Origin: an uncultured Candidatus Saccharibacteria bacterium | Lineage (GTDB): Bacteria > Patescibacteriota > Doudnabacteria > UBA920 | Reading direction: 5' to 3' | DNA: 64,000 bases | NCBI GenBank assembly: GCA_964532425.1 | Contig: CAZHIA010000007.1 | Coordinates: forward strand, 8 to 64,007 | The notes under the pieces: generated by a model | Database searches by the model: none | Told to the model about the DNA's origin: nothing | Seen by the model: the letters and a program-made list of their open reading frames with translations, nothing else | Part shown: positions 3,747 through 30,755 of the stretch, piece by piece | Layout of the letters: each line of letters starts with the position of its first letter | Position numbering within the stretch: the stretch's first letter is position 1 | Translations under genes and position numbers: made by a program

Positions 3747-5855
3747 ATGGCTTCCCGAAACCCGTATCCCGATGAGCAGCCCTATGCGCAGGCTCAGGTC
3801 CCGGCCCATCGTCCCCGGAAGAAGTCTTCCGGCGCAGGCCTGGGAGTAATCATGGTCTTGTTTTCGCTGATCTTCATCGTCGGCCCGTTTGCGGCCCCGA
3901 TCAAGATCGACAGCTTAAGCCGGCTCATTCTGCTTGGCTTTGGCGTGCTCACGCTGCTCATTGGCAGCATCATTTTGGTCATCACGCGGCTCTACATGAA
4001 GGCTTCGGCGAACGAAGCGTTCGTCAAGACCGGCATGGGCGGCCGCAAGGCTATCATCGACGGCGGCGCCATTGTGGTGCCGGTCGTGCATGAAGTCATT
4101 TGGGTGAGCCTCGAGACTATGAAACTCGAGATCATTAAGATGGCCAAAGATGCGTTGCTGACCATGGACAAGCTGCGTGCCGACATTCGCGCCGAGTTCT
4201 TCATTCGCGTGGAGAAAACGCAAGAAGGTGTGTTGCAGGCAGCGACCTCCCTTGGCGACCGGTGCAGTGAGCCGGCGGCGGTCAAACAACTGGTGGAAGC
4301 CAAGCTGGTTTCCGCTCTGCGCGTCGTGGCTGCGACGATGAATCTCGAGGACCTCAACAAGAACCGTGATAAGTTCGCGGAAGAGGTACAGAAGATTGTC
4401 CAGAACGACATCAAGCATAACGGCTACATGCTGGAAACCGTGACCATTTCGCACTTGGACCAGGCGCCGAAAGACACGCTCGATCCCGAGAATAACGTGT
4501 TCGACGCTGAAGGCGCGCGCAACATGGCGGCCAAGATCCAGGTTCAACTGACCGAGAAGACCGAGATCGAACAGAAGCAGGCGGTCGCTCGCGTAAAGCT
4601 GAAGGCTGCTGCCGAGCAGGAAACCAAGCAGCGCGAAGTCGAGAAGAACGAGTTCATCTTCCAGCAGGACGTCGCCAACACGAAGGCCCAGCAGGACACC
4701 GAGCTGCAGAAGAAGCAGATTCAAGCCGAAACGGCCCGCAAGACTGCTGAAGTCGAAGCGGAAAATACGGCTGCATCAGAAGCGGTGAGGGCCCAGAAAG
4801 GCCGTGAAGCGCAGGAAGCCAAGATCATCGCGGAACAGGCTGTCCAGCTTCGTAACGTGGCCAAGGAACAGGCCGTGCAAGTAGCGAACACGGTTAAGGA
4901 AAAAGAAGTTCAGGCCGCACAGATCGATCGCGATACGCTGATCAAGACCAAGACCGTCGAACAGCAGAAAGACATCGAGACGGCTACGGTCGAAAAGCAG
5001 AAGGCAGTGGAAGTCGCCAAGCGCAACCAGGAAATCACGATTGCGACCAAGGAGCAGGAACTTGCCGCCGCTGCAGCCGCTAAGCTGACCGCCGAAGCCG
5101 ATCGTGAACGGGCCAACCAGGCCAAGCTTACGGTCGAGAAGGAAGGTGAAGCCCAGCGTGCCAAGACAGTTGTGGTCATCAACAAACAGGCCGAAGCCGA
5201 ATCTCGGCAGATTGAGCAGCAAACGCAGGTAAACGTCGAGGCGTATCGCACGACCAAGCTTGCCGAAGCTGAACAGCTTGCTGCGGAGAAGACGGCGACG
5301 GCTGTCCGTACGAAGGCTGAAGCCGATCGTGACGCCAAGCAGATGGCAGCGGCTGGCGATCAGGCTGTTGCGTTGGTGCCGGTCCAGGTCAAGCAGGCCG
5401 AGGTCGATGTCGAAGCCAAGCGGGTCACGGTCCTCAAGTCCGAACTCGAAGCCAAGACAGCCAACGAGAAGATGGCGTTCGATCTGCAGGTCAAGTTGGC
5501 CGAGATCGCGGCCGACCGCGATGTTCGCATGAAGGCTGCCGAGTCTCTCGGCGCCGCCTTAAGTGGTGCGAATATGACCATTTGGGGCGACCAGCGGACC
5601 CTGGAGCAGATCTCGGGGGCGTTCTACGCCGGCCAGCAAAAGGGCAAGTTCATCGAAGGGGTTGCCAATGCCACGCCGGCTGACGTCAAGGAAGCGGTGT
5701 TCGATTCCGTCGAGCGCATCTCCGGGGCAGTCTCCAATCTGGCCAAAAACATGTTCGGCAAGGATATCTCGCCGGACATGATCGCAACGCTGGTTAACGC
5801 GGAGCTGGAGAAGCAGCGTACCGGTGCGCCGGCCGCGGCATCCGCCAAGGCGTGA
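3747..5855 (+). CDS. Flotillin-like SPFH/Band-7 protein (YqiK/FloT family) with an unusually long E/A/K/Q-rich coiled-coil tail (702 aa).
   Basis: N-terminal TM hairpin, an SPFH-like segment (IIDGGAIVVPVVHEVIWVSLETMKLE...) and a long EA-repeat region. AGGAG RBS. Terminator follows. Confidence 0.8.
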   Translation: MASRNPYPDEQPYAQAQVPAHRPRKKSSGAGLGVIMVLFSLIFIVGPFAAPIKIDSLSRLILLGFGVLTLLIGSIILVITRLYMKASANEAFVKTGMGGRKAIIDGGAIVVPVVHEVIWVSLETMKLEIIKMAKDALLTMDKLRADIRAEFFIRVEKTQEGVLQAATSLGDRCSEPAAVKQLVEAKLVSALRVVAATMNLEDLNKNRDKFAEEVQKIVQNDIKHNGYMLETVTISHLDQAPKDTLDPENNVFDAEGARNMAAKIQVQLTEKTEIEQKQAVARVKLKAAAEQETKQREVEKNEFIFQQDVANTKAQQDTELQKKQIQAETARKTAEVEAENTAASEAVRAQKGREAQEAKIIAEQAVQLRNVAKEQAVQVANTVKEKEVQAAQIDRDTLIKTKTVEQQKDIETATVEKQKAVEVAKRNQEITIATKEQELAAAAAAKLTAEADRERANQAKLTVEKEGEAQRAKTVVVINKQAEAESRQIEQQTQVNVEAYRTTKLAEAEQLAAEKTATAVRTKAEADRDAKQMAAAGDQAVALVPVQVKQAEVDVEAKRVTVLKSELEAKTANEKMAFDLQVKLAEIAADRDVRMKAAESLGAALSGANMTIWGDQRTLEQISGAFYAGQQKGKFIEGVANATPADVKEAVFDSVERISGAVSNLAKNMFGKDISPDMIATLVNAELEKQRTGAPAAASAKA

Positions 5856-6002: not shown

Positions 6003-6755
6003 ATGACAGTTCAGGAAGAAAAGCCAATAGGCGAGACAGGATGGGAACAGCAGGCTGCTGCAGACATAAAACGGTTGGCTACGAGCGAACCGAGGATGGT
6101 GTTTCAACGGACGCCCGCTATTGAACGCGCGTTTACGCTGTCCGGTCGGCTGCTGTGCTGCGGAGATGAGGGTGTACCGCACGGGGTGCACCTGCCGGGT
6201 TCCGGCGTGCTGCTGCCTCTGGAAGAATTGAAGGCGGTAGTGGCAGCTGCTGGCATCGAGGAGTTAACCTCGCACGACAACTGCGGGGCTTACCGGATGA
6301 AGTTCCCGGGCGACCAAAATCCCAATCGCGGCGCGGAAGAGTGGGGGAGAAGGACCGCTTCCTTGCTGGGGATCAAACATCGCCATATTACCGCAGCGGG
6401 CATGGATCGCCCGGTCAGCCTGCATGCGGCAACCTGCGTGTACTACGATGGGACGGGATCGTTTAATCGAATCCCCGGATTGCCGAGCGGGTTCGTGGTG
6501 AGCCGAAGGTTTTCTCCGACTGGCTTGCAGGACTTGCAGCGATATCTCAGCATAGCGTTCGGTGAACATGGACTCGGTGATCGGCTTACGCCGCGGCAAC
6601 CGTTCCATGTCATTGTTCTGCCACACCCGACCGACCTGGGTTTGTCGCATAAAGTGCTCTCAAGAGAGGCGGTGCAGGCAGTTGTTCCGTACGGCCGCCG
6701 CGTGAGAGTCGGCGTGGTCAAGACCGGCTGGCATATGCGCAATCTTGCGCAGTGA
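6003..6755 (+). CDS. Hypothetical protein (250 aa), no family recognised.
   Basis: AAAGGAGGG RBS 6 nt before the ATG. Clean ORF between two terminators. Confidence 0.55.
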   Translation: MTVQEEKPIGETGWEQQAAADIKRLATSEPRMVFQRTPAIERAFTLSGRLLCCGDEGVPHGVHLPGSGVLLPLEELKAVVAAAGIEELTSHDNCGAYRMKFPGDQNPNRGAEEWGRRTASLLGIKHRHITAAGMDRPVSLHAATCVYYDGTGSFNRIPGLPSGFVVSRRFSPTGLQDLQRYLSIAFGEHGLGDRLTPRQPFHVIVLPHPTDLGLSHKVLSREAVQAVVPYGRRVRVGVVKTGWHMRNLAQ

Positions 6756-10055: not shown

Positions 10056-10386
10056 TGAAATAGAGAATTAGAGAACTAGTGAACTAGAGAAATAGTAAAC
10101 TAGAAAAGCGAAAAGTAGAACACGGATAAACACTGATAAAATACAAACTGATTAACACAGATAAACCGCCTCGACAATCTGATCGGGGTGGTTTTGTAGA
10201 GCAGGCCCATGGCCTGCATGTGTAGGGGCGGGTCGCTACCCGCCCTTTTGCATTGTCATTGCGAGTCGTTTAAGGGCTTTGGCTTAAACGGCGTGGCAAT
10301 CTCTTTCATCTGGTGTAGATTGCTTTGTCAACAAGTCAAAACCCTTGCTTCTTCACAATGACAAGCAAATTATCTCATATATGCTA

Positions 10387-10422
10387 TTCATCACAATTCA
10401 ACGATCGTTGAATTGTGATGAA
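10387..10422. repeat. 36-bp perfect palindrome TTCATCACAATTCAACGA|TCGTTGAATTGTGATGAA.
   Basis: Exact 18+18 inverted repeat read directly from the sequence. It sits just upstream of the terminator for the minus-strand gene ending at 10509. Confidence 0.8.
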
Positions 10423-10423
10423 T

Positions 10424-10475
10424 AAAAAACACCCCGCTCTTTGATTCGCCAATTGGCGAAAAAGGGCGGGGTGTT
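10424..10475 (-). terminator. Terminator for the minus-strand gene ending at 10509: ACACCCCGC...GCGGGGTGT stem, a nested TTCGCCAATTGGCGAA palindrome, and a T-tract on the minus strand.
   Basis: GC-rich stem. The A-run on the plus strand equals a T-run on the minus strand. Confidence 0.65.
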
Positions 10476-10508: not shown

Positions 10509-10940
10509 TTACTCGTGGACCACGTGCTCCTCATAGAGCGGGAACACGTAGACATCGTACTCCCTGTTGAGTAACCAGCATTTGCGGCTGGAGATCTCCG
10601 AGCGGACCACTATAGCGACCAGGTTTATGCCGGGGCGCAGATGGTCGGAAATAATTCTTCCGATTGTCTCAGACGCAGGAATGGCGCTGACATGAAACGA
10701 GCCATCTGTCTCGACAATCAGGTAGGGTTGCTGGAGGTAAACCAGCTTGTCGTTGTGGTTGCGATTTCCTACCAAGTGTTCGCTGGTCATGCTCCCCAGG
10801 TCCTGGTCCAGTTTGGAAAACTGGCAGAACGCGATGTGGTGGACCTTGTCCTTGACCAGCTCGTCTGTCGCCTTCGGATCGACAACCAGCTTTAGCCACG
10901 GGTTGTCTTCCAGAATCTTTCTGTACTTTTCGACTTTCAT
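10509..10940 (-). CDS. Hypothetical protein (143 aa).
   Basis: GAGGAGGA RBS 4 nt upstream of the ATG on the minus strand. No family recognised. Confidence 0.6.
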   Translation of the reverse strand: MKVEKYRKILEDNPWLKLVVDPKATDELVKDKVHHIAFCQFSKLDQDLGSMTSEHLVGNRNHNDKLVYLQQPYLIVETDGSFHVSAIPASETIGRIISDHLRPGINLVAIVVRSEISSRKCWLLNREYDVYVFPLYEEHVVHE

Positions 10941-10994: not shown

Positions 10995-11100
10995 GGCTGG
11001 GTACTACTAGTGGAACCTGTAGCGTACCGGTTCATCGGCAACCCAAAGCCCATAAACCTGTCCCGTCGAATGACGGGATGGGCACGCTACAAAATCGTTC
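10995..11100. repeat. Structured element copy A, closed by GTAGCGTACC...GGCACGCTAC, containing a CCCGTC-GAAT-GACGGG hairpin and a TTGCCGATGAAC core.
   Basis: The outer 10-nt inverted repeat and the inner conserved block TTGCCGATGAAYCGGYACGCTAC are shared with a second copy at 17163..17220. Confidence 0.5.
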
Positions 11101-11182: not shown

Positions 11183-11908
11183 TTAGCGTTGTTGTGGGAC
11201 GGCGGTGGCGTCGATCACAGGCGTGGCCGAGTATATCGGCGTGGCGGTTTGAGTCATGCAGAGCCAGGGTTCGCCCTGGTCCAGCATGGCCCAGTAGACC
11301 GGGTGCCTCCCGCTGGCATCACAATCCAGAAAGTCCACTACCTGGTGGCCTGGTTTAACGGTTTTGATGTGTCCGTCTGGAAAGCGAATCGCATACTGCC
11401 ATCCGTCGGCCGAGTCGCGGTTCCCGACGGTTCCGAGCAGCGTGCCGTCCAAAAGTTCGTAGTCGTCGCGGAACGTCCTGCTTTTTCGGTGATTGTAGAT
11501 GACGAGCGCCAGGACTAGGACAGCGAATGCTATTACCAACGCGATGGGGCTGCTGTACTCCGAGAAAAACGACGCTTTCTTTGTGTAGGGCGTGGCGAAG
11601 TCGCCGGTCTGAGTCTTTCCTTCCAGAGCGTCGAACACTCTGTCGAATGCGTGACCAAGCTTTAAATCAGCTTGTGATTGTTGAAACTTTGTCGCAGCCT
11701 TTCCTTTAACGGTATGGCTGCTGTCTTGTTTCCATTTGTCAGCGCACACGATAACGGTCTCTCTGTGGTCGTCGACGGCCGCGATCTGGTATTTGCAGCC
11801 GGACTGATGAGCAGGGAGAGAGGGGTAGCTTTCGGTGGCGATGTCAACGCTGGCAAAAGCCAGCGCGGAAATTACCAGAAAGAGAACAACAGTAGTGGGC
11901 GTCCTCAT
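11183..11908 (-). CDS. Paralog 1 of a tandem pair of single-pass membrane proteins: signal peptide, Cys-containing extracytoplasmic domain, TM helix, and a conserved C-terminal GTVGNR-x4-GWxYAIR domain.
   Basis: AGGAGGA RBS before the MRTPTT start. Clear similarity to the downstream paralog in the signal region, the CADKW motif and the C-terminal GTVGNRDSADGWQYAIRFPDGH block. Confidence 0.6.
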   Translation of the reverse strand: MRTPTTVVLFLVISALAFASVDIATESYPSLPAHQSGCKYQIAAVDDHRETVIVCADKWKQDSSHTVKGKAATKFQQSQADLKLGHAFDRVFDALEGKTQTGDFATPYTKKASFFSEYSSPIALVIAFAVLVLALVIYNHRKSRTFRDDYELLDGTLLGTVGNRDSADGWQYAIRFPDGHIKTVKPGHQVVDFLDCDASGRHPVYWAMLDQGEPWLCMTQTATPIYSATPVIDATAVPQQR

Positions 11909-13739: not shown

Positions 13740-14117
13740 GAGGTAAAACAAATGCAGCGGTCGCACCTCGTGCGGCCGCTCTTTTTATTTGGTGTTAGCA
13801 CATGTTAACGTACCCCCCTCCCGTCAGTCCGACTGACGGACTCCCCCTATGTAGGGGGAGAGTGACTGCAAGGTGTAGGTCTTCTTACCATAGTAAGTGA
13901 GACGATCTGTTTCCTGCAGTGATGTAGGGGAAGCTACTAGCTTCCCTTGTTTGTGTGAGGGCGGTTAATAACCGCCCCTACATCAGAAGCAGCGGGTTAC
14001 AATTGTTCCAAATTTTTTATTTTTCTATCTTTCTATCAACAGGCCTGCACTACATTGAGATGGTGATCGTCTCAATAAAAAATGCCCCGCCCAAAGAACA
14101 AAGGGCGGGGTGTGTTG

Positions 14118-15984: not shown

Positions 15985-17124
15985 TTAGTCGATCTTGACG
16001 ACTTCTGCGATCTTGTCGCTACCGGGCTTTTTTCGAATAACTCTCTTAGTAGAGAGTTTGAGTGTCGGGATCGAAGGATCTTTTCGATTGCCGTCCAGGA
16101 TGACCGTGTCATATAGCTGGATGTGGCTATACCTCGGTGGGTCTGGAACCGGATCTGGCGGGTTGCTTGCCGCGGCAGCTGCCGGAACTGTCCTCATGGT
16201 GGGGACGGTGTCCATGTCCATCTGGCTGTAGGGCTGGGTAAAGATGGACGGAATCCGGTACACCGGTTGATCCTTTGATCCGGGAGGGTCCAGGAACTCG
16301 TCGAGTTTCTGCGAGACCCAGTCCCAGAACCTGCTCCAGCTCGGCATTTTGACCTTAGTGGTCCACTGGGGTAATCCGAACTTGAACTTGGGGACTGTGA
16401 CCTTGAACCTCGGTATATGCCAATCCGGCATCTTCGGCCTGGATACCTTGATCTTAGGGAACTTAACCTTGCCGAGCAGTTCTCTGATGCGTTGGCGGTT
16501 GTTGTAAGCCAGCATCAACAGAGCACATATGGCTCCCAGCAGAACCGTCCAGGCAATGACAGTCACGACCTCTATAAAGAACGAAGTATTCGTACCAGTG
16601 GCCTGCTTGCCGTTCTTGCGGCTGCCGCCTAAGGTGCGGTCTGCGTTCTGTTTCGGGGCTGCAGACTTGGGCTGGGCAGTCGACTGGGGGGCAGGGTTCT
16701 TCTGGACTCCGTTACCCGCACTTGGCACCGTAACAGTAACTACGGTATTGTTCGGATCAGGTGCCTTGGTGCTCGAAATCGTCCGCTGGGGGGCGTTCGT
16801 CTGCCGGGTAGCCACTCGAGTGGGGGAATACGTCGCGTTTTCCCATGCGAGCCACTCGGCTACTTCCTGATGGTTAACAGTCGCAGTGACTGGCAACCAA
16901 ACCGGCTGGCCTTCCTGCAGTTGACGGATGTCGGTTTTCTGGATCTTCTGTGTCAGACTGGCGTTCAGGTACAGGTTCGGGTACAGCGTAGGCTTATAGC
17001 CATTCATCTGGAGCGTGGTCCAGGCGGACCGGTGGATATGCATCGCAACAGCCTTAGTGGTCTGTGCGAAGCTTGCCACCATGAACAGCACCAAAAGAAT
17101 GATGGTGCGCATCACGAATTTCAT
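15985..17124 (-). CDS. Hypothetical membrane protein with a signal peptide, a central TM helix and a cytoplasmic Lys/Pro-rich repeat region (KVKFPKIKVSRPKMP...).
   Basis: GGAGGAG RBS before the MKFVMRT start. Topology read from the hydrophobic segments. Confidence 0.55.
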   Translation of the reverse strand: MKFVMRTIILLVLFMVASFAQTTKAVAMHIHRSAWTTLQMNGYKPTLYPNLYLNASLTQKIQKTDIRQLQEGQPVWLPVTATVNHQEVAEWLAWENATYSPTRVATRQTNAPQRTISSTKAPDPNNTVVTVTVPSAGNGVQKNPAPQSTAQPKSAAPKQNADRTLGGSRKNGKQATGTNTSFFIEVVTVIAWTVLLGAICALLMLAYNNRQRIRELLGKVKFPKIKVSRPKMPDWHIPRFKVTVPKFKFGLPQWTTKVKMPSWSRFWDWVSQKLDEFLDPPGSKDQPVYRIPSIFTQPYSQMDMDTVPTMRTVPAAAAASNPPDPVPDPPRYSHIQLYDTVILDGNRKDPSIPTLKLSTKRVIRKKPGSDKIAEVVKID

Positions 17125-17162
17125 GACTCCTCCTAAAATACAAAAGGAACAATTGGGTTCTG

Positions 17163-17220
17163 TAGCGTGCCCATTCATGGGTCTCTCCGGATTGCCGATG
17201 AATCGGCACGCTACCAAACC
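17163..17220. repeat. Structured element copy B: GTAGCGTGCC-CATTCATGGG...CCGATGAATCG-GCACGCTAC.
   Basis: 10-bp outer inverted repeat plus inner CATTCAT/ATGAATG arms. Shares TTGCCGATGAAYCGGYACGCTAC with copy A at 10995..11100. Lies in the 5' leader of the 15985..17124 gene. Confidence 0.5.
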
Positions 17221-17264
17221 TGTTTCGAAGGAACGTTCGAGATTGTTGTCTCGCTTTTGCTTTT

Positions 17265-17435
17265 GTAGGGGCGGGTCGAGACCCGCCCAGAGAAGAGGAA
17301 CGGTCGAGACCGTTCCCTACAGCTGTAGTGCAGGCCCGTGGCCTGCAATGACAGCCAGGTATTTAGGCAGGCCACGGGCCTGCACTACAAGAGAGCCAGT
17401 TCCATCTGCCTGTAGGGGCGGATAGTATCCGCCTG
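17265..17435. repeat. Cluster of GC-rich REP-like palindromes, including a 22-bp-arm inverted repeat GTAGTGCAGGCCCGTGGCCTGC...GCAGGCCACGGGCCTGCACTAC (17325..17388).
   Basis: Four consecutive hairpins (GGGCGGGTC-GAGA-CCCGCCC, GGAACGGTC-GAGA-CCGTTCC, the 22-bp-arm IR, and GGGCGGATA..ATCCGCC). Related copies occur at 10196..10245, 13841..13984, 28900..28975, 29229..29282 and 38140..38215. Confidence 0.6.
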
Positions 17436-17660: not shown

Positions 17661-18236
17661 ATGCCCTCCCCCCGTTCCCTTCTATTCTCCTCTATTATAA
17701 TACTCGCGCTATTTAGCGTACTCAATTTTGGCTATGTCTCCAAACAGGTGGTATACCGGTTAGGGATTCATACGTCCGAGCCGATGTCTGAGATCCAGAG
17801 AAGCGGTGTTTCCAACCGGGTAGTGGTCCCGAGCCTGCACATAGACGCGCCCCTCGTTGAACCGCGGGGTACCTCCGACAATGAGTTTGAAGCGGCTCTG
17901 GCCGGCGGCGTGGTGCACTATCCGGGAACAGCCGAACCGGGCGAGCAGGGGACTTGCTATCTGTTTGGTCACAGCTCGGACTACCCTTGGGTAGCCGGAA
18001 AGTACAAAGCAGTTTTTGCGCTGCTTCCCTCTATAAAGACGGGCGAGCAGGTGATACTTTTTGGACAGGAGGGAAAGCCGTACATTTATACGGTCACGGG
18101 GACCAAAGTCGCAGCTGCAAGCGATGTGCAGTACGTGCAATTAAAAGATCTTTCAAAAAAGCAGCTCATCCTCCAAACCTCGTACCCGGTAGGCACGGCG
18201 GCGAAAAGGTTTTTAGTGTTTGCTGAGATGAAATAA
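17661..18236 (+). CDS. Sortase-family protein (SrtA-like fold) with Ser at the position of the catalytic Cys.
   Basis: N-terminal TM anchor. YLFGHSS aligns with SrtA IAGHTF (His). KKQLILQTSYP aligns with QLTLITCDD, with Cys replaced by Ser. AAKRFLVFAE aligns with EKRKIFVATE (Arg). An LPXTG substrate gene lies 1.8 kb upstream. Confidence 0.65.
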   Translation: MPSPRSLLFSSIIILALFSVLNFGYVSKQVVYRLGIHTSEPMSEIQRSGVSNRVVVPSLHIDAPLVEPRGTSDNEFEAALAGGVVHYPGTAEPGEQGTCYLFGHSSDYPWVAGKYKAVFALLPSIKTGEQVILFGQEGKPYIYTVTGTKVAAASDVQYVQLKDLSKKQLILQTSYPVGTAAKRFLVFAEMK

Positions 18237-19829: not shown

Positions 19830-22800
19830 ATGAACAAACTTATTAATCTCAAAGCTGCTGCCGCTGCGGCCATCATGGCCCTGGCCAGTGCCCTGACCCT
19901 CCTGGTCCCACAGCCGGCGTTGGCAGCACAAACCATCACTTCCGCCACACTTAATGGGGGAAGCTCAGTAGTGGTCAAGCCAGGTACAACCATAACGGCA
20001 AATGTTGTTGGCAGTTTAACTGGAGGGGATCATTGGCACGGCACTCAGTGGCGCATCAGTACCACACCACCTTCAGGGTCTGGTACATCTACTTGTTCAG
20101 ATACAACAGATCATAATAGTGGCACTGGTGTATCATCGGGAAATTTCAACATTACAGCCCCAGGAACAGCAGGTACCTATAATGTCTATTTTATAATGGA
20201 CTCGTCAAGTATTTGTAATGGTAGCGAAGGGGCATACTTTACATTAAGTAATGCAGTGGTTGTCGATGCTACAGCTCCTACAATTACCATCACACCTGGT
20301 GATTCAACCTCGCCAGTAAAGACCGTAACCTGGAACTGGTCGGCTAATGAGGCCTCTACTTATCGGTATATTATAAGCACCAATCCGGCCACAATGCCTT
20401 CCGGAAGTTTTTCTTCCGTGACATCTGCTACTCAGAGTACAGGGAATGGCACATACTATTTGAAAGTTGAGGCACAAGATGCAGCAGGGAATACAACTGT
20501 AAAAGGCGTGTACGCTATTTTGGATAACACAGCGCCAGTAATCGCTCCGGCTTCCGATGTTATCGCTACAGCTAATGCATTGGGTGGTGCAACAGTAAGT
20601 TATGCTCTTCCCACAGCTACAGACAATCATGATTCTACGGTAACTGTAACGTGCAGTCCGGTTTCCGGGAGTTTCTTCTCTCTTGGCCAAACAACTGTTA
20701 CCTGCAATGCCAGCGATGCTGCAGGAAACGCGGCCACTCCTGTTACCTTTAAAGTTACCGTAAATCCAGGTCCGGTCAGTGCGAGTCAGTCAACTGTTGA
20801 AGTGAGTGTCAGCTCCGCTACTACGAACGGCGGCAATGTCATTATTACCATTACTGCCAAGGACCAGTTTGGGAATGTCATACCGAATATTCTGCCTGCA
20901 AATGTAGTCATCTCAGCAAGCGGCAGCGGTAATACTGTTCACCAGCCTTCAGCTCCGACAGATTCCAATGGGAAGACGCAAGGCCAATTGGGATCAAGTG
21001 TTTCAGGGACTAAAACAATTACGGTAACGATAAACGGAACCCCGTTAACACAACAGCCGCAAGTTACATTTACAGTCGGCGATCCGGTCAATGCCACCGT
21101 TACGGCAACACCTAAGCCCCGGGAAGCGAGCCTTTCTGGAGCTTCGGTGGCTTTAGATATTTTTGTCGACGATGGCAATGGCAATGCGGTCAATGATGGT
21201 GTTATTTTAACGGTTACACCGTCTACCTCAGCTCCCCATGGTACACCTACGGTCACCGGTTGTACTCCCACCTCTGCCGGCCATGTCAGCTGCACGTTAA
21301 GCTTCAACTACAAGGGTACGGTCTCTTTAGCCATTTCTTCCTATAAGGGAAGCTTGAATGTACTCGGAGATAATCCGGTAAGCTTTGTTGATACCACCAA
21401 GCCGATTATAGCCGTTATACCGCCGAATCCGGACAGTGTGGAATATAAGGGGACATATACCGATCCTGGCGCAACGGCAACTGACAATATTGATGGTGAT
21501 TTGACTTCGCAGATTGTAAAAACCGGTACCGTCGATCCCAATACGCTCAACGGCGTACCGAATACGACCACGAAGGTGGTAGGCGTGTACACGCTCTATT
21601 ACAATGTGTCCGATTCCAGCACAAACGCCGCTGTACAGCAGACTCGTACGGTCAATGTGGTGGATACCACACCGCCGGTTATTGAGTCAATTACTTCTGA
21701 TGCAACAGCAAGCGGATGGTTAAAGGTCACAGATTCTATTACGTTTACGTTAACGACATCTGTAGTTGAACCCGCTGGTACAATAGTCTCAGGTTCCTAC
21801 AACGGTCGTTCTTTGACCTGGACCACAACGGATAATCGGCACTGGACTGCGGTCTATACGGTAACGGAAGGGGACTCCGATCAGCTTACGCCTTTGCAAA
21901 TTTCCGGTGTAAAGGTTACTGATGAAGCCGGAAACGATAGCACCTTAGCTTCGGGTATTGATGTTCAGAAGACTATTGATGCAAATACGCCAACGACGCC
22001 TACCGTCAACCTTCCTACGTATATCAACAATGCAGGAAAGAGCAATGTAGAATTAACAATTAGTGGCGAGTCGGGAACGACAGCTGATTACGCGCTCACT
22101 GATAGCGGTACTGGTTCAGTTACGGGCTCGGTGGTAATTCCGGGAACCGGTACTGCCGTTGTAAATCTCGATTTGTCTGGTTTGGCTGATGGCACAGTTA
22201 CCGCTTCTGTTACATTGACTGATGTTGCCGGAAATAAAAGCCCGGCAGGTACGGATACTGCCACGAAAGATACCGTTGCTCCCGCCGCCGGAACTCTGAC
22301 CATCGATCCGTACATAAACGTTACGAACCAGTCGCCGTTTGCCGTGAACGGGACGGGTGAGCCAAATGCCAAGCTTCATATTACCATCACTGATTTTGAT
22401 GGTCACACTGAAATTATCGATTACGGAGCAGTGACCGTAGGCGGCAATATTTACGCCATAAAAAATCTCTCGAGCTTACACGACGGAACAGTGACGTTTG
22501 CCCTCGCTTTGGAGGACGCTGCTGGTAATGTTGGCCCGGAATCTACAACTACTGCCGTAAAAGAGACTATCAGGCCTACATTGGTATCACTCGATAACGG
22601 CTCTTTGTACAAAGCCGGTACTTATACCTTGTCGGCGGAGTTTAGCGAAGACGTAACTGCGCCGAAAATTTCCATTGCATATACTTCGGTGAACGGCACT
22701 TGTTCTGATGTGACTAATGCAGCCATGACGCCGGGTAGTGATGCTCTTCATTACACGTACGATCTCGTGATCGATGATGCTTGTGATGGAGCAAATGCCA

Positions 22801-25800
22801 CCATCACCGTCAGTAATGCTACTGACACGGCTGGTAACCCCATGTTAGACGACGCTACTCACACCTTCAAAGTTGATACTTTAGCACCTGCTTTGGCTAT
22901 TACGAGCCCGGCGACTGATGCATATATCAACGCAAACTATTCGGTCAGTTATACTATGAGTGAAGATCTGCAGAGCGGCTCGCTAGTCTTCCACAGCATG
23001 ACTCCTGGCATGACCTGCCCGCTCACAGGCAGCGACTTGTTGTCCGGTACACATACCATAGCTGCTGTCGCGTTGACGACCTGTGGTATTACTTTGACCG
23101 AAGGGACTCATACTATAACGCTCAACGGCACTGATCTGGCTGGTAACAGCAACACGACTACTAACACTAATATCACCTACGATGTGACCGCGCCGACGGT
23201 CGTGAATGTGACTTCTCCTAAAGCAGATGGTATCTACAAGGCCGGTGAGGTGATAGATGTCACTGTACAGTTCAGCGAGCCGGTTAATGTGACTTATGAC
23301 TACACGTCCGGCGGTTGTGGTTATTGGCCGTGGTCACCGTGCTGGGACGGCCACTATTATGCGCCCCAGGTTGCCTTAGAAACAGGCTCGACTGATAGAA
23401 ATGCTGTGTACGACCGGGATGCGGGCGGCAGCGGTACCAACACAATTTCTTTCCGGTACGTAGTAGAAGCTGGTGACATGACATCTGACCTGGATTATAT
23501 ATCCGCCAGTGCGCTCAGTATGAACGGTCAGAGTATTCGCGATTTGGCTGGCAACGATGTTGTTGCAACCCTTGCCGTTCCTGGTGCAGAACATTCATTA
23601 GGCTTTAACAAAGCAATTGTCATTGATACCCAGGCTCCGACAGTTGCTTTGACGACTCCGGTGGCTGATCCGACAAATGTCACGCCGTTTACGGTAACGG
23701 CGACGTTCTCGGAAGATGTAACCGGGTTTGAGTCCTCCGATATAGTAGTGGGAAATGGTTCTGTCAGTAACTTTGCCGGCAGCGGTTCTGTGTATACCTT
23801 TGATGTAACGCCAACCGGCGACGGTTCGGTTACGATCGATGTCCCGGCTGCGGCAGCTGTTGATGCGGCTGGTAACGGTAATACGGTAGCGACCCAACTG
23901 ACTCGTGTCTTTGATGCAACCAAACCAACCGTAACTGCAGTAGCTTTGATGGAAGGAACAGTTGCTTCTGATGGTTTGGTTAAGGCTGGAGATGTGCTCA
24001 CGGTGAATGTGACCTTCAGTGAAGATATGGCGAGCACACCAGTTCCTCAAATCTCTATTGCCGGCGCAAATACGTTGACAGGGGCCGACATGACCAAGGT
24101 TGATGCCAAACATTATACCTACAACTTCACAGTCGGTTCCGGAGACGGTACTGCTACTATTACGATCGATAACGGAAAGGATTTGGCTGGCAATGCCCAG
24201 GTGGCCAATTCCAGTGCAACCTTTAAAGTCGATAACACCGCCCCAGTCATTTCCGGCACTCCTTCCAGCTTTGCCACAACGGCCAATACTACTGGCTATG
24301 CGAACGGCGTAACCTATACCATGCCGACTGCCGCCGATGACGTCGACGGTTCGGTGGCGGTTACCTGTACTCCGGCTTCCGGATCGAATTTCCCGCTCGG
24401 CGGAACAACGGTAACCTGCACAGCCAAGGACGCGGCCGGCAACAATGCCACACCAACAACCTTCACGGTTACCGTTAATCCTGCCGTCATTGCCAAAGTT
24501 ACGGTTTCTGCCTCTCCTTCTACCTTGACCACGGCAGATACTTCCACCCTGACCATCAATGGCCGCGACCAGTATGACAATGTGACGACCAATCAGAGCG
24601 GTACGGTTGTGGCGATCAGCGCGGACAATGGTGGCGCTTTGGGCGCAACCATTGTGACGCTTGCAAGCGGTGCGGCTACGACGAGTCTCAATAAGACTTC
24701 TGCTGGCGATGTGCATGTCACGGTGACCAGCGGTATCCTCACTCCGGGCAACACCACGGTGACGTTTACGAAGGCTGATGTAACTCCTCCGACTGTAGTC
24801 AATTCAAATCCAGCTCCGGGAGCCACAGGGGTTTCGGTGAATGCCTCCCTGTTCGTAACCTTCAGTGAACCCCTTAAGTCCACAAGCATCAATTCCACCA
24901 ACGTCCAGCTGTGGCGCGTAGCTACGGGAACCGAGGTTTCCGATGTGCAAATTCCGGTTACGGTCTCCCTGGTGTCCGGCGATATGCAAGTGAACCTTAC
25001 GCCTGCCGGACCGCTTGAATACACGAATTCTTACTACTTTGTAGTCAGTGGCGTGCAGGATGCCGCGGGTAATGCCATGGCCGACCCGTACACCACCGCG
25101 GGTAATCCGTTCAAGACCGAAGACAGCACGGCGGATGTAACAAACCCGACAGTAAAGAGTCAGTATCCCGCAGCCGCTGCAACGAATGTTGCTATAACAG
25201 TCAAGCCGTCCGTGACCTTCTCGGAAACGATGGACACTACCACGCTGACTGACAGCAACGTCCAACTCATCAAAGATTCAGACAGCTCTGTTATCCCTGC
25301 AACGGTAGTAGTGGGCAATGGAGGCACCCAGGCTATTCTGGAACCGGCTACCGCCCTCTTAAACAGCACGAGCTACCATGTAACCGTTAGTACTGCCGTT
25401 AAGGATCTTGCAGGCAATCCGTTGGCCAGCAGCTATGTTGGAGACAGCTTCACCACGGAAGCCGAGCAGGTGGTAGACTTGGCCGTGACCCAGACCGAAC
25501 TGCTGCAGAGCTATGCCACTCCGAACAATACCTATGCCAGTGGCTGGAAGTGGAAGCTCAAGGTCACGACCCCGAAAGATGAGACTAAATTGCGCATGAA
25601 GTTTACTGACTTCACCAGCGGCGCCAATACCGTGCCCGCTGCAGGCAATATCCATTTCTACTCTGCTCAGTCCTCGGATGCCGCTACGTCTGACACGGCC
25701 CGTGAGATCACGGCAGCCGGCACGTTCAGCTCGGACATTACCCTAAACGGCGATACCGATACCTCCGCTCCTGGACGGCAGATTGAAATTATCGTTGAGG

Positions 25801-25880
25801 TTAAAGTTCCGGCCGGTACCCCGGGCGGTTCGTACTCCAATAGCTACGATATCCAGACCAGTACTCCTTCTGAGACGTAA
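19830..25880 (+). CDS. Giant secreted cell-surface protein (2016 aa) with repeated Ig-like/HYR-like modules; putative adhesin.
   Basis: Signal peptide MNKLINLKAAAAAAIMALASALTLLVPQPALAA. Two near-duplicate HYR-like modules (ATDNHDSTVTVTCSPVSGSFFSLGQTTVTCNASDAAGNAATPVTFKVTVNP and AADDVDGSVAVTCTPASGSNFPLGGTTVTCTAKDAAGNNATPTTFTVTVNP). T/S/V/N-rich beta-type repeats throughout. Confidence 0.8.
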   Translation: MNKLINLKAAAAAAIMALASALTLLVPQPALAAQTITSATLNGGSSVVVKPGTTITANVVGSLTGGDHWHGTQWRISTTPPSGSGTSTCSDTTDHNSGTGVSSGNFNITAPGTAGTYNVYFIMDSSSICNGSEGAYFTLSNAVVVDATAPTITITPGDSTSPVKTVTWNWSANEASTYRYIISTNPATMPSGSFSSVTSATQSTGNGTYYLKVEAQDAAGNTTVKGVYAILDNTAPVIAPASDVIATANALGGATVSYALPTATDNHDSTVTVTCSPVSGSFFSLGQTTVTCNASDAAGNAATPVTFKVTVNPGPVSASQSTVEVSVSSATTNGGNVIITITAKDQFGNVIPNILPANVVISASGSGNTVHQPSAPTDSNGKTQGQLGSSVSGTKTITVTINGTPLTQQPQVTFTVGDPVNATVTATPKPREASLSGASVALDIFVDDGNGNAVNDGVILTVTPSTSAPHGTPTVTGCTPTSAGHVSCTLSFNYKGTVSLAISSYKGSLNVLGDNPVSFVDTTKPIIAVIPPNPDSVEYKGTYTDPGATATDNIDGDLTSQIVKTGTVDPNTLNGVPNTTTKVVGVYTLYYNVSDSSTNAAVQQTRTVNVVDTTPPVIESITSDATASGWLKVTDSITFTLTTSVVEPAGTIVSGSYNGRSLTWTTTDNRHWTAVYTVTEGDSDQLTPLQISGVKVTDEAGNDSTLASGIDVQKTIDANTPTTPTVNLPTYINNAGKSNVELTISGESGTTADYALTDSGTGSVTGSVVIPGTGTAVVNLDLSGLADGTVTASVTLTDVAGNKSPAGTDTATKDTVAPAAGTLTIDPYINVTNQSPFAVNGTGEPNAKLHITITDFDGHTEIIDYGAVTVGGNIYAIKNLSSLHDGTVTFALALEDAAGNVGPESTTTAVKETIRPTLVSLDNGSLYKAGTYTLSAEFSEDVTAPKISIAYTSVNGTCSDVTNAAMTPGSDALHYTYDLVIDDACDGANATITVSNATDTAGNPMLDDATHTFKVDTLAPALAITSPATDAYINANYSVSYTMSEDLQSGSLVFHSMTPGMTCPLTGSDLLSGTHTIAAVALTTCGITLTEGTHTITLNGTDLAGNSNTTTNTNITYDVTAPTVVNVTSPKADGIYKAGEVIDVTVQFSEPVNVTYDYTSGGCGYWPWSPCWDGHYYAPQVALETGSTDRNAVYDRDAGGSGTNTISFRYVVEAGDMTSDLDYISASALSMNGQSIRDLAGNDVVATLAVPGAEHSLGFNKAIVIDTQAPTVALTTPVADPTNVTPFTVTATFSEDVTGFESSDIVVGNGSVSNFAGSGSVYTFDVTPTGDGSVTIDVPAAAAVDAAGNGNTVATQLTRVFDATKPTVTAVALMEGTVASDGLVKAGDVLTVNVTFSEDMASTPVPQISIAGANTLTGADMTKVDAKHYTYNFTVGSGDGTATITIDNGKDLAGNAQVANSSATFKVDNTAPVISGTPSSFATTANTTGYANGVTYTMPTAADDVDGSVAVTCTPASGSNFPLGGTTVTCTAKDAAGNNATPTTFTVTVNPAVIAKVTVSASPSTLTTADTSTLTINGRDQYDNVTTNQSGTVVAISADNGGALGATIVTLASGAATTSLNKTSAGDVHVTVTSGILTPGNTTVTFTKADVTPPTVVNSNPAPGATGVSVNASLFVTFSEPLKSTSINSTNVQLWRVATGTEVSDVQIPVTVSLVSGDMQVNLTPAGPLEYTNSYYFVVSGVQDAAGNAMADPYTTAGNPFKTEDSTADVTNPTVKSQYPAAAATNVAITVKPSVTFSETMDTTTLTDSNVQLIKDSDSSVIPATVVVGNGGTQAILEPATALLNSTSYHVTVSTAVKDLAGNPLASSYVGDSFTTEAEQVVDLAVTQTELLQSYATPNNTYASGWKWKLKVTTPKDETKLRMKFTDFTSGANTVPAAGNIHFYSAQSSDAATSDTAREITAAGTFSSDITLNGDTDTSAPGRQIEIIVEVKVPAGTPGGSYSNSYDIQTSTPSET

Positions 25881-27516: not shown

Positions 27517-27558
27517 TTCAGTGGGGAAGTTGTACAAATGTACAACTTCCCCACTGAA
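27517..27558. repeat. Perfect 20-bp-arm hairpin TTCAGTGGGGAAGTTGTACA-AA-TGTACAACTTCCCCACTGAA (copy 1).
   Basis: Exact inverted repeat. A second copy with loop TT (the exact reverse complement) lies at 28298..28339. Confidence 0.85.
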
Positions 27559-27573
27559 ATCGAAACAAAAATA

Positions 27574-28248
27574 ATGACACGATATTATCGTCAAAGATCG
27601 GGATTGGTTGCGGAATTAATGCAACAGATTCCGAAAGCACCGCGTAAGAGGAAAGAGGAGGCGAATTATGATAATCTCAAGCGCGCCAGCGAGATTGTCC
27701 TTGCGGTGGTGGCGGTGGCGGGGTTGGCATCGGTTGCGGTAGTGGCGCCCAATGCGCTGCTTGCCCTGAATAAGTTCTTTTTGAAAAAACACAAGCATCT
27801 CAGTCCCGCAGAGCAGCAACGGAAGATGGTGGACACTTTCTACTATCTGAAACGGAGCGGTAAAATTGACTTACGTCCTGATGGCGGATCATGGAAAGTG
27901 TGGTTGACCGCCAAAGGGAAGCGGCAAGTTTTAGAAATGGACATTGCGACGGTCTATATACCCAAAGCGTCAAAATGGGGAGGCACCTGGTGGCTCATTG
28001 CAGCAGACGTTCCCACGAAGGATCACCGGCAGGGTGCAGACCGGTTGCGTCGCAAATTGAAACAGCTTAATTTATTTCCGCTCCAAAGGACCTTGTGGCT
28101 TTACCCATATGATCCCTGTGAGGCTTTGGAAGTCATACTTCATGCCTATCATATAGAAAATTTTGTAACAGTCATGGAAGTCCGTAAGCTGGACCGGGAG
28201 GATGAAAGGAAAGCCAAGGCACATTTTCGTAACACGGGTGTGCTATAG
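27574..28248 (+). CDS. Hypothetical protein with an N-terminal TM helix, a winged-helix-like segment and a C-terminal Cas2-like/PaaX-like segment. Start uncertain; the ORF could begin at 27538 inside the hairpin.
   Basis: Clean ORF bracketed by the two hairpins. The C-terminal motif GGTWWLIAADVP...DRLRRKLKQLNLFPLQRTLWLYPYD resembles the beta-alpha-beta core of Cas2/VapD-type proteins. This is a pattern-level resemblance only. Confidence 0.45.
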   Translation: MTRYYRQRSGLVAELMQQIPKAPRKRKEEANYDNLKRASEIVLAVVAVAGLASVAVVAPNALLALNKFFLKKHKHLSPAEQQRKMVDTFYYLKRSGKIDLRPDGGSWKVWLTAKGKRQVLEMDIATVYIPKASKWGGTWWLIAADVPTKDHRQGADRLRRKLKQLNLFPLQRTLWLYPYDPCEALEVILHAYHIENFVTVMEVRKLDREDERKAKAHFRNTGVL

Positions 28249-28297
28249 CCGTAGTAGTTTTAATCATGTTTCTATAATAGAAAATTAGTGTAATTAA

Positions 28298-28339
28298 TTC
28301 AGTGGGGAAGTTGTACATTTGTACAACTTCCCCACTGAA
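28298..28339. repeat. Perfect 20-bp-arm hairpin (copy 2, inverted orientation, loop TT). It also serves as a likely bidirectional terminator between the 27574..28248 gene and msrB.
   Basis: Sequence TTCAGTGGGGAAGTTGTACA-TT-TGTACAACTTCCCCACTGAA. Confidence 0.85.
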
Positions 28340-28385
28340 TTTGAGTGTCAGGGCATATATCAAGGGTGTATGTTTTGGATGCTTA

Positions 28386-29159: not shown

Positions 29160-29186
29160 TTAGCACTTGACAGCCTAGAGTGCTAA
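29160..29186. promoter_or_regulatory. CIRCE operator (HrcA binding site) TTAGCACTT-N9-GAGTGCTAA.
   Basis: Matches the CIRCE consensus TTAGCACTC-N9-GAGTGCTAA with one mismatch. Lies upstream of hrcA. Confidence 0.8.
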
Positions 29187-29199
29187 TAGTAAAATAGTT

Positions 29200-29226
29200 T
29201 TAGCACTCAAATATGGGAATTGCTAA
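29200..29226. promoter_or_regulatory. Second, degenerate CIRCE-like element TTAGCACTC-N9-AATTGCTAA.
   Basis: The left half is perfect and the right half partly matches. It is 13 nt downstream of the first CIRCE. Confidence 0.5.
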
Positions 29227-29286
29227 CTGTAGTGCAGGGCCGTGCCCTGCCCTCAAGAAAGCAGGCCGAGGGCCTGCACTACATCT

Positions 29287-30045
29287 ATGGACAATCCTGA
29301 AATTACAACCCGGCAAGCGAAGATCCTCGCTGCCATCGTGAAAGAGAATTGCGACACCGGCGAGCCGGTGGCGAGCGCCGATTTGGTGGAAAAATACCAG
29401 CTCGACGTGAGCACGGCCACTATCCGCAACGAGATGGCGGCTTTGGAGAAGCTGGGATATATTTACCAACCGCACACTTCTTCCGGCCGCGTGCCGACGG
29501 ACAAAGGCTTTCGTTATTTCGTTAACCAGCTCATGGATAAGGTCAAGCTGACCTTAAAGGAGCAGGAGCTGCTCAAGCGGGAAATGATCAAGCTACAGAT
29601 TGCGCATCACGAGCTCGGTCGCCGATTGACTAAATTGCTCTCTGATCACAGCCAGCAGGCCAGCTTTGCCCTGTTTCCGGAAGAAGTCTCGACTATGGGA
29701 CTTTCAAAGATTTTGAATAATCCCGCCCTGCCGCCGGAAGATGCTCGCGAGATTGCCGAGTTCTTCGATAATATCGATTCCTATGCCGAACAGATGATGA
29801 AAGACTACGGCGAGAAAGGCCAGGCGGAAGCGTACATCGGCAAGGAACTGACCTTGTCTAAGAAGAGCGACTACTCCATGATCGTCTCGCCACTGAAACT
29901 CCCGAGCGGGAAAAAAGGAGTCATCGGACTTATTGGTCCGAAGTCCATGAAGTACGAAAAGAATTTGTCGCTGTTAGAATATATCGCGAAGTTATTGGGA
30001 AGCGGAGGAGGTGCGGCGATATTGGTCATGTTGTTTATTAAATAA
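29287..30045 (+). CDS. hrcA: Heat-inducible transcription repressor HrcA (short form, about 252 aa).
   Basis: N-terminal wHTH (TTRQAKILAAIVKENCDTGEPVASADL). Located downstream of CIRCE and upstream of grpE-dnaK-dnaJ. Start set at MDNPEI; the longer ORF beginning at 29242 starts inside a REP-like palindrome. Confidence 0.75.
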   Translation: MDNPEITTRQAKILAAIVKENCDTGEPVASADLVEKYQLDVSTATIRNEMAALEKLGYIYQPHTSSGRVPTDKGFRYFVNQLMDKVKLTLKEQELLKREMIKLQIAHHELGRRLTKLLSDHSQQASFALFPEEVSTMGLSKILNNPALPPEDAREIAEFFDNIDSYAEQMMKDYGEKGQAEAYIGKELTLSKKSDYSMIVSPLKLPSGKKGVIGLIGPKSMKYEKNLSLLEYIAKLLGSGGGAAILVMLFIK

Positions 30046-30128: not shown

Positions 30129-30755
30129 ATGTCTGAAGACAATAACCAGAACGACGAGAATACCCAGCATGAAGAGGTGGCTACCGAACAGCTTCAAGCC
30201 GATCTCAATGCCATGACGGACAATTGGAAGAGAGCCTTGGCAGATTTTGAGAACTATCGCCGCAGGACCGAGGAGCAAAGCCAGGAACTGATTAATTTCG
30301 CCAAGGAAACCGTGATTGCACGGCTGCTACCGACCTTGGATGCGCTGGAGCAGGCGCTTAGGCATCTGCCGGAATACTCCGAAGATGAACCCCTCCTAAC
30401 CTCCCCTTTTGAAAAAGGGGAGGAAACTGCAGGAACCATAGCAAAAGAGAAGGGGTCTGCAGAAACCCCCTCTGTGCAAAAGAGGGGGCAGGGGGAGTTC
30501 AAAAAACAGTACGCGAACTGGCAAACAGGAGTGAACGGCATTATCCTGCAGCTCGACAAGACCTTGGAAGAACTCGGCGTGAAGAAAATTGAAGCCGTGG
30601 GCAAGAAATTTGACCCCAACTTCCATGAAGCGGTTCGCGAAGTGGAAGGGGAAGAGGACGGCATGGTCGTGGAAGAATACCAGACGGGGTTCGAGCTGAA
30701 CGGAAAAGTTATCCGGCCGAGCCAGGTAGTAATCAGCAAGAAAGTTCAAAATTAA
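30129..30755 (+). CDS. grpE: Nucleotide exchange factor GrpE, with a low-complexity insert.
   Basis: GrpE-like coiled-coil N-terminus and C-terminal beta domain (ILQLDKTLEELGVKKIEAVGKKFDPNFHEAV). Sits between hrcA and dnaK. Confidence 0.85.
   Translation: MSEDNNQNDENTQHEEVATEQLQADLNAMTDNWKRALADFENYRRRTEEQSQELINFAKETVIARLLPTLDALEQALRHLPEYSEDEPLLTSPFEKGEETAGTIAKEKGSAETPSVQKRGQGEFKKQYANWQTGVNGIILQLDKTLEELGVKKIEAVGKKFDPNFHEAVREVEGEEDGMVVEEYQTGFELNGKVIRPSQVVISKKVQN

Follow-up and report, generated by a model that had tools for sequence, protein, structure and literature searches.

What is the structured element that recurs upstream of two minus-strand genes in a 64,000-nucleotide stretch of a patescibacterial metagenome-assembled genome (MAG; GenBank contig CAZHIA010000007.1; hereafter, the window, meaning this whole stretch), and is it a regulatory RNA or a mobile element? 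The original prediction, made from the nucleotide sequence alone, placed one copy (here, copy A) at positions 10995-11100 and a second (copy B) near 17163..17220, and read them as either a functional RNA motif or a miniature mobile element. The evidence presented below makes it very probable that A and B are GTAG-tagged repetitive extragenic palindromic (REP) doublets, that is, head-to-head heterodimers of two small hairpin arms, residing in a Doudnabacteria-like member of the Patescibacteria, or candidate phyla radiation (CPR). The host assignment follows from the UvrA protein encoded in the window, which is 86% identical to its nearest named relatives, all from Candidatus Doudnabacteria. Such doublets are called REPINs by Bertels and Rainey, whereas "head-to-head heterodimer" is the wording used in passages of Di Nocera, De Gregorio and Rocco 2013 (PMC3733652).

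The same plan underlies each of the four arms in the two copies, with a GTAG-CGT start, a 6-bp stem and a 2-nt loop (Table 1). There are two arm types, the G-type, with GCCGAT-TC-ATCGGC, and the C-type, with GCCCAT-(TT or TC)-ATGGGC, distinguished by a G-to-C exchange for which the opposite side of the same small stem has the compensating change. The pairing-preserving stem difference, originally ascribed to divergence between the two copies, actually lies between the arm types of every doublet (GCCGAT/ATCGGC versus GCCCAT/ATGGGC). The left boundary of both copies is GTAGCGT(G/A)CC and the right one GGCACGCTAC. The element first proposed as A is real, as is copy B; the span given for A includes about 24 surplus bases on the left. 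The outer 10-mers, which had been described as an inverted repeat, are fully complementary in B (GTAGCGTGCC / GGCACGCTAC) but in A pair at only 9 of the 10 positions (GTAGCGTACC).

Table 1. Positions of the REP doublets and their parts, of the other GTAG units in the window, and of genes with in-frame doublets in other genomes.
Feature	Positions	Strand	Basis
Copy A, whole REP doublet (REPIN), GTAG heads outward, decayed	11019..11090	+	model R1
Copy A, G-type arm, GTAG-CGT-ACCGGT-TC-ATCGGC	11019..11039	+	
Copy A, spacer AACCCAAA	11040..11047	none	model R1 alignment
Copy A, C-type arm; plus strand reads GCCCAT-AA-[insert]-ATGGGC-ACG-CTAC	11048..11090	-	
Copy A, 22-nt insertion in the C-type arm loop, with its own hairpin CCCGTC-GAAT-GACGGG (11062-11077)	11056..11077		
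Copy B, whole REP doublet (REPIN), near consensus	17162..17214	-	model R1; inverted repeat I10
Copy B, C-type arm, GTAG-CGT-GCCCAT-TC-ATGGGT	17162..17182	+	
Copy B, spacer CTCTCCGGATT, 11 nt	17183..17193	none	
Copy B, G-type arm; minus strand GTAG-CGT-GCCGAT-TC-ATCGGC, equal to the family consensus	17194..17214	-	
GTAG units with other stems	10196 + 10222		
GTAG units with other stems	13924 + 13981		
GTAG units with other stems	17265 + 17320		
GTAG units with other stems	17325 + 17388		
GTAG unit with other stem	17412		
GTAG units with other stems	29229 + 29282		
Gene with in-frame doublet	L042:3735-6722		
Gene with in-frame doublet	L061:4340-7303		
Gene with in-frame doublet	L038:5445-7379		
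Gene with in-frame doublet	L008:285-1598		
Gene with in-frame doublet	L072:5118-6338		
Gene with in-frame doublet	L070:3206-4588		
Gene with in-frame doublet	L016:6012-7187		
Gene with in-frame doublet	L097:1367-2545		

The two copies differ in their state of preservation. The G-type arm of A carries two substitutions relative to the family consensus GCCGAT, one of which breaks a stem pair (in the pair count described below, column 8:21 of the A row is unpaired and column 12:17 is a G-U pair), and the loop of its C-type arm has acquired an insertion, 23 nt long relative to the covariance model. The hairpin inside this insertion, initially listed among the hairpins of the element, is indeed present but is peculiar to A, being seen in none of the 29 aligned doublets or the other family members examined. 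Because one arm is damaged and a foreign hairpin is inserted in one loop, A is probably an immobile fossil, whereas B, being near consensus, could still be a transposase substrate. The spacer of B has the length most common in the family.

Both copies are intergenic according to the gene calls on the corresponding assembled contig (Logan contig L001), with ribosome-binding sites preceding the ATG codons at 10940 and 17124. Copy A lies between two same-strand genes, 92 nt past the stop codon of gene 11183-11908 and 78 nt from the start of the downstream gene 10509-10940; copy B lies in a divergent intergenic region, shared with five other GTAG REP units, 37 nt from the start of the downstream gene 15985-17124. 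The near-identical 23-nt core on which the original prediction was built does occur in both copies, but on opposite strands, minus in A (11019-11041) and plus in B (17192-17214). When the doublets are oriented by their arm asymmetry, using the strand that scores better with the covariance model, A is on the plus strand and B on the minus strand; relative to the minus-strand gene that follows it, each copy thus points the other way from its counterpart.

The covariance model (R1) was derived from 29 doublets, from other genomes plus B but without A, and the whole window was searched with filters off. Both copies were recovered as significant: A with 45.6 bits (E = 3e-11) in plus orientation against 34.3 bits in minus, and B, which belongs to the training set, with 66.9 bits (E = 1e-17) in minus orientation against 60.9 bits in plus. 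Besides A and B, there was no significant match to R1 within the 64 kb. From shuffled sequences, 0.00 occurrences of the 23-nt core are expected, whereas the window has exactly two. Together with the score of A in a model built without it, this bears out the claim that the resemblance is not due to chance. As single-stranded DNA, A folds with -19.9 kcal/mol (z = -5.4), and B yields z = -6.2 to -6.6.

Base pairing was counted over 16 distinct arm pairs, with the spacers and the loop insert of A removed. A three-way structure, composed of the outer stem GTAGCGT/ACGCTAC and the two arm hairpins, is 97.7% paired, with five pairs that change on both sides; these values were reached by none of 500 shuffles. 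The alternative, a single long arm-to-arm hairpin, is 85.4% paired, and in 15 of the 16 rows its columns 11:32 and 18:25 fail to pair. The GTAG is invariant throughout, and variants that preserve pairing include the stem GCTGAT/ATCAGC and the outer stem GTAGTTA/TGACTAC. The energy model favours the long hairpin over the three-way structure, so both conformations are plausible, and because the rows of the alignment are few and related, the covariation is supportive evidence rather than proof. Searches of A and B against Rfam produced no match at the gathering threshold or at E <= 1; both thresholds returned only tRNAs and, on other REP doublets, microRNA-like noise.

Doublets of this family are widespread in CPR genomes, as became apparent when the search was extended to relatives. 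A scan of one genome per species with the query GTAGCGTRCCNRTTCATNGG matched at least 100 stretches; among the matches listed, 45 of 100 came from MAGs labelled Patescibacteria group, Doudnabacteria, Kerfeldbacteria, Saccharibacteria, Daviesbacteria or Microgenomatus, and 4 more from MAGs without a group label (three doublet stretches and one single arm). The other listed matches, about half of the total and distributed among Proteobacteria, Actinobacteria and other groups, lack the second arm, look like coding coincidences (GTAGCGTGCCAGTTCATCGG, with the other strand reading ...DELARY) and were set aside by eye; the number of matches outside the CPR is close to a rough chance estimate for a pattern of that length. 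Individual MAGs contain, among the matches listed, at least 8 (JBBREH01) and at least 6 (JAHFJJ01) stretches. The full 42-base doublet pattern was found in 55 stretches of JGI metagenomes and in none of the viral contigs. The family consensus reads t-GTAGCGT-GCCGAT-TC-ATCGGC-[spacer]-GCCCAT-AA-ATGGGC-ACGCTAC-a. In A, B and 35 doublets of related loci, the GTAG heads are on the outside; arrangements with the heads inward are present as well (L040, L081, L097). Spacer lengths cluster at 10-11, 18 and 4 nt, with 10-11 nt the most frequent.

Two further arrangements were encountered among the matches. In a Doudnabacteria MAG and a Daviesbacteria-labelled MAG (L005:2740-3110 and 6310-6690; L018:900-1430; L029:1500-1880; L034:760-1130), a larger palindromic repeat with outer arms GTAACTATTCACCTTTTCC...GGAAAAGGTGAATAGTTAC encloses the doublet; the core of these arms (GTAACTATT / AATAGTTAC) does not occur in the window. 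Four MAGs contain a single CTAC-closed arm (ccccGTAGCGTGCC(A/G)ATTCAT(T/C)GGCTCTGCTACtgggg) within an open reading frame (ORF) with conserved flanks (L003:625-645, L050:1924-1944, L069:1374-1394, L071:950-970). The stem of this arm shows a compensated A-T / G-C difference, and the arm is either a single REP that became fixed in a gene or a coding sequence of similar appearance.

The identity of the family is also indicated by a gene located between its arms. In a Saccharibacteria-labelled MAG (L043), an ORF for 137 aa (4891-5304, minus strand) fits exactly between two arms whose heads are outward, the G-type at 4870-4890 and the C-type at 5312-5332. The encoded protein reaches 32.9 bits with Pfam Y1_Tnp, for which the cut-off is 23; among the NCBIfam models, REP_Tyr_transpos ("REP-associated tyrosine transposase", hereafter RAYT) fits it best, with 72.1 bits compared to 25 bits for the IS200 model, and its sole match in the PDB is the Escherichia coli TnpA_REP (4ER8, E = 3e-8). 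An HUH motif, PNHVHLI, and a YYEHVIRN motif are visible in the translation. The protein is best called a RAYT-like transposase of a divergent branch. It has 1045 homologues at E <= 1e-5; the best 120 of these are mostly 137 aa long, and several come from organisms named Doudnabacteria or Patescibacteria, and some homologues have been named "REP element-mobilizing transposase RayT" by JGI.

A RAYT gene flanked by arms of the family was found in four related genomes (L043, L104, L106, L110). In two Doudnabacteria MAGs, it is located between purC and purB, with tGTAGCGTGCCCATTTATGGGC before and GCCGATAAATCGGCACGCTACa after the gene, the shared position being as expected for a vertically inherited gene; in a third MAG beyond L043, the gene has variant arms and a different neighbourhood. 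In at least nine further homologues, the annotated ends run into the arms, which adds peptides such as PINRHAT, ADESARY and SVPIY to the protein. Structurally, then, the doublet is the transposase unit minus its gene. One more RAYT homologue (L156:5176-5582), some 500 nt away from a doublet, is divided over two reading frames and is either a pseudogene or an assembly error.

The distribution of the doublets carries signs of mobility. A doublet with a TGCA spacer recurs at five loci whose flanks are unrelated, and contig L130 holds two of these loci; this is consistent with the doublet being copied in its entirety. In 70 of 82 doublets, the base before the GTAG is T, and in 67 of 82 the base after the CTAC is A. 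No target-site duplication was detected at 75 loci: there were no matches for k >= 4, and the counts for k = 2-3 equalled the permutation expectation, which fits the HUH/Y1 mechanism and not that of a DDE-type miniature inverted-repeat transposable element (MITE). Two loci that encode UvrA proteins with 86-88% identity (L113 and L114) contain no family arms in 22.8 kb each; one of the two is free of any GTAG-headed hairpin and the other has three weak matches only, and the gene order downstream of uvrA in these loci is not common to the window. The anatomy of the GTAG doublet, the RAYT-flanking arms in relatives, the dispersed copies, the recurring spacer and the lack of a target-site duplication all uphold the second of the two original readings, a miniature mobile element.

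Doublets have also entered genes. With at least 60 codons of open frame required on both sides, complemented by Pfam checks, a long open frame surrounds about 13 of the 35 doublets in related loci and 13 of 56 in the independent metagenome set, whereas the window contains no in-gene copy. Pfam domains were identified on both sides of the insert in leucyl-tRNA synthetase (LeuRS), a UvrD-like helicase, UvrC, MnmA, PurD and one glycosyltransferase (L016); LeuRS carries two inserts, the insert in MnmA is found at the same site in two MAGs, and in a second glycosyltransferase (L097) the doublet is only three codons from the C-terminal end. The in-gene doublets have one open frame per strand, (R/C)SVPI(H/Y)(R/G)R...P(I/M)N(G/R)HAT or V(A/V)RPFMG...AD(E/K)SARY, and their peptides, for example RSVPIHRRPETPINGHAT or VARPFMGKSADESARY, are 14-20 residues long. 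Among 120 LeuRS homologues, the doublet peptides occur in only two proteins per site; the alignment shows them as patchy and yields no clean empty site because the insertions sit in variable linkers. Apart from the doublets, LeuRS of Doudnabacteria-like genomes contains an inserted alpha/beta-hydrolase domain (Pfam Ser_hydrolase and related; residues 249-403 of the protein encoded at L042:3735-6722, and many homologues), and some of these homologues additionally possess NUDIX or methyltransferase domains.

By inference from TnpA_REP and the REPs of E. coli (PMC3479197, PMC8266576), each arm would fold once the DNA is single-stranded. If the analogy with E. coli extends to the enzyme, a RAYT of the HUH/Y1 type would recognise the hairpin with the GTAG as a guide, and would cut and rejoin the strand, so that the whole doublet would be copied elsewhere in one piece and without target-site duplication. 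Effects on neighbouring genes would be a by-product of the stable hairpin added to the transcript. Work by Ton-Hoang et al. in 2012 and Bertels and Rainey in 2011 is said to provide a further basis for this scheme.

Several points weigh against the identification of A and B as REP doublets served by a RAYT. The 72.1 bits of the transposase from L043 fall below the curated NCBIfam equivalog cut-off of 80. The window itself encodes no RAYT (the best tblastn match with the L043 protein has E = 1.7), so that the partner enzyme is shown in relatives only; Pfam searches of the ORFs at 6-18.2 kb and of six ORFs at 19.8-30.8 kb returned only UvrA, sortase, HrcA, GrpE, Ig-like and PaaX_M domains. The 64 kb contain two family doublets only, one of them degenerate. 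The arms hardly vary between RAYTs with an identity of only 53-72%, which allows for a constraint beyond recognition by the transposase. Finally, transposition of REPs by RAYT is known as in vitro cleavage and rejoining only, and for E. coli only.

Among the other explanations, the one that initially appeared most natural is a cis-regulatory RNA motif, such as a riboswitch, an attenuator or a protein-binding leader, in the 5' untranslated regions of the two downstream genes. Both copies are indeed upstream of minus-strand start codons, at the distances given above, both fold stably and with compensatory changes in the stems, and B would be within a leader if, and only if, the promoter-like TTGACT-16-TATAAT on the minus strand at 17520-17493 is used. 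The opposite orientations of A and B to these genes, revealed by the orientation check that was suggested together with the prediction, count against a cis-regulatory RNA, and neither downstream protein has a Pfam match, so nothing ties the two together. In other genomes, the doublets occupy intergenic regions of all three kinds (convergent, divergent and same-strand) as well as in-frame positions within genes; moreover, the arms flank a transposase gene, and there is no Rfam match at E <= 1. Thus, although the copies do precede the genes, a role as leader RNA is very unlikely, and the functional-RNA half of the original prediction is not supported. A less remote alternative, and one compatible with a REP origin, is that the host has co-opted these REPs, as RNA hairpins that stabilise the upstream message, as partial terminators, or as sites for a DNA-bending protein or gyrase, roles of the kind reported for REPs and bacterial interspersed mosaic elements in E. 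coli. The location of A shortly after the stop codon of a same-strand gene is a typical REP position in the passages of Di Nocera et al. (PMC3733652) that bear on this; the hairpins are strong, the palindrome forms in RNA either way round, and the GTAG doublet at 29229-29282 lies between CIRCE-like operators (controlling inverted repeats of chaperone expression) and the hrcA start. However, neither A nor B is followed by a T-run or flagged by the terminator scan, the decay of A argues against selection on its structure, and B, in a divergent region, is not where a 3'-end stabiliser would be. On balance, we regard co-option as a minor possibility.

The remaining alternatives have still less to recommend them. 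A conventional DDE-derived MITE, recognised as double-stranded DNA via its terminal inverted repeats, would account for repeats of about 10 bp at the ends, the small size and the dispersed copies. This origin is highly improbable given that no target-site duplication of 2-8 bp was found at the 75 loci beyond the permutation expectation, that each arm has its own hairpin with compensated changes, and that the gene between the arms encodes an HUH/Y1 enzyme, not a DDE one. Chance likeness, or debris of a local duplication between 11 kb and 17 kb, might be suspected from the presence of only two copies in the window, 6 kb apart, but is scarcely credible in view of the 23-mer count and the E-values of both copies reported above, and of near-identical doublets with unrelated flanks in dozens of other genomes and metagenomes.

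The doublets of this family resemble several systems already described. The passages on GTAG-tagged REPs in Di Nocera et al. (Pseudomonas GTAG-1 and Stenotrophomonas SMAG; PMC3733652) describe the same terminal GTAG, a few unpaired bases, a GC-rich stem of 6-9 bp and a 2-3 nt loop, the same heterodimers with the GTAG outside and different stems, variable spacers, several families per genome, and some copies in DNA-repair and tRNA-synthetase genes. According to the same passages, REPs inside genes prefer excision-repair genes and tRNA synthetases, a parallel with Rickettsia palindromic elements (RPEs), of which RPE-4 and RPE-6 are CGTC-tagged repeats for which no associated transposase was found. 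The CPR family differs in its GCCGAT/GCCCAT stems, which come from a phylum not named in those passages, and in its host, a CPR bacterium with a very small genome; the copy number appears modest, at least 6 to at least 8 stretches per MAG among the matches listed, and the in-gene fraction, roughly 25-35%, seems high. As in the doublets here, the RPEs persist in frame in housekeeping genes of a reduced genome and add a short peptide; there is no sequence relationship, RPE-1 is longer, and the copies in the window are intergenic. In the REPIN-RAYT system of P. fluorescens, as reported by Bertels and Rainey, two inverted REPs form the unit that is copied, likewise here.

A RAYT gene flanked by REPs of its own family is also the arrangement in the REPtrons of Nunvar et al. 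2010 (PMC2817692). Compared to the REPIN-RAYT systems and REPtrons, the RAYT of the CPR is short (137 aa) and remote from the E. coli TnpA_REP, stays under the NCBIfam equivalog cut-off, and is accompanied by arms that hardly vary among RAYTs with the divergence given above. The E. coli REPs and bacterial interspersed mosaic elements (BIMEs), together with TnpA_REP (4ER8, PMC3479197; PMC8266576), share the GTAG head and hairpin, which are recognised there on single-stranded DNA. The two alternating inverted REP types of the BIMEs, Y and Z, correspond to the G-type and C-type arms, and TnpA_REP has an HUH motif and a catalytic tyrosine, as the CPR enzyme appears to have in its translated sequence. 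The E. coli REPs differ in their longer, bulged stems; in that bacterium, BIMEs bind IHF and gyrase and REPs stabilise mRNA. The IS200/IS605 elements likewise combine a Y1/HUH transposase with subterminal hairpins on single-stranded DNA and no target-site duplication; here, however, the RAYT model outscores the IS200 model (72 versus 25 bits), both ends are GTAG REPs instead of distinct left and right ends, and the repeats greatly outnumber the gene.

The window contains additional GTAG-headed hairpins with other stems. In all, 12 GTAG tetranucleotides have a perfect hairpin starting 0-2 nt further on, compared to a mean of 1.25 and a maximum of 5 in shuffled sequences; the units with other stems (Table 1) mostly form inverted pairs with the GTAG outside, and seven units, B among them, are packed in the divergent region 17162-17433. 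At least three other GTAG hairpin families can be discerned (10196-10245, 13924-13981, 17265-17433, 29229-29282), with the stems GGGCGG(G/T/A)T., GGAACGGTC, GGGAAGCTA and TGCAGG(C/G)C, along with a truncated GTAG unit near 14042-14056; a unit with the stem GGAACGGTC/GGAAAGGTC is also present in a Doudnabacteria locus (L008, 449-476). Upstream of hrcA, whose likely start is the ATG at 29287 and which is followed by grpE (30129-30755), there are two CIRCE-like inverted repeats, TTAGCACTT-N9-GAGTGCTAA at 29160-29186 and an imperfect one at 29200-29226, with the REP doublet 29229-29282 between these operators and the start codon.

The window contains other repeats as well. A perfect palindrome with arms of 20-22 bp (TTCAGTGGGGAAGTTGTACA / TGTACAACTTCCCCACTGAA) is present in two copies (27517-27558 and 28296-28341) that bracket an ORF of 236 aa (27538-28248) with a PaaX_M (Cas2-like) domain, and a perfect 40-nt palindrome (10385-10424; TATTCATCACAATTCAACGA / TCGTTGAATTGTGATGAATA), followed by a GC-rich hairpin, occupies the convergent spacer after uvrA. 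One end of the Logan contig L001 falls within this 40-nt palindrome and the other within a REP doublet (about 17341), an indication that the repeats break short-read assemblies. The sortase gene (17661-18236) is near the gene for a protein of 2016 aa (19830-25880) made of bacterial Ig-like, HYR and related repeats, which is presumably a surface protein.

REPs, REPINs and RAYTs are a well-known kind of element, and automatic annotation already applies the name RayT to CPR proteins, but none of the papers in the literature searched links them with CPR bacteria; one preprint describes a RAYT in an archaeon, beside rbcL. Whether a REPIN-RAYT system extends across the CPR, with near-invariant 21-nt arms in MAGs assigned to different lineages and a quarter to a third of the doublets in frame in essential genes of streamlined genomes of about 1 Mb, all of them uncommon traits for REPs, is in our judgement evenly poised. 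Within such genes, the doublets would encode peptides such as SVPIHGR...PINGHAT, comparable to the palindromic elements of Rickettsia. For the annotation of the window, the outcome is the removal of one candidate regulatory RNA. More generally, the doublets matter for gene calling, where they cause false N-terminal extensions and odd peptide inserts, for the assembly of MAGs, which breaks at the repeats, and for the question of whether REPIN-RAYT pairs are long-term, vertically inherited residents of bacterial genomes. The family is compact and defined by its sequence, and a short RAYT with two 21-nt substrates would be a convenient system for biochemical tests.

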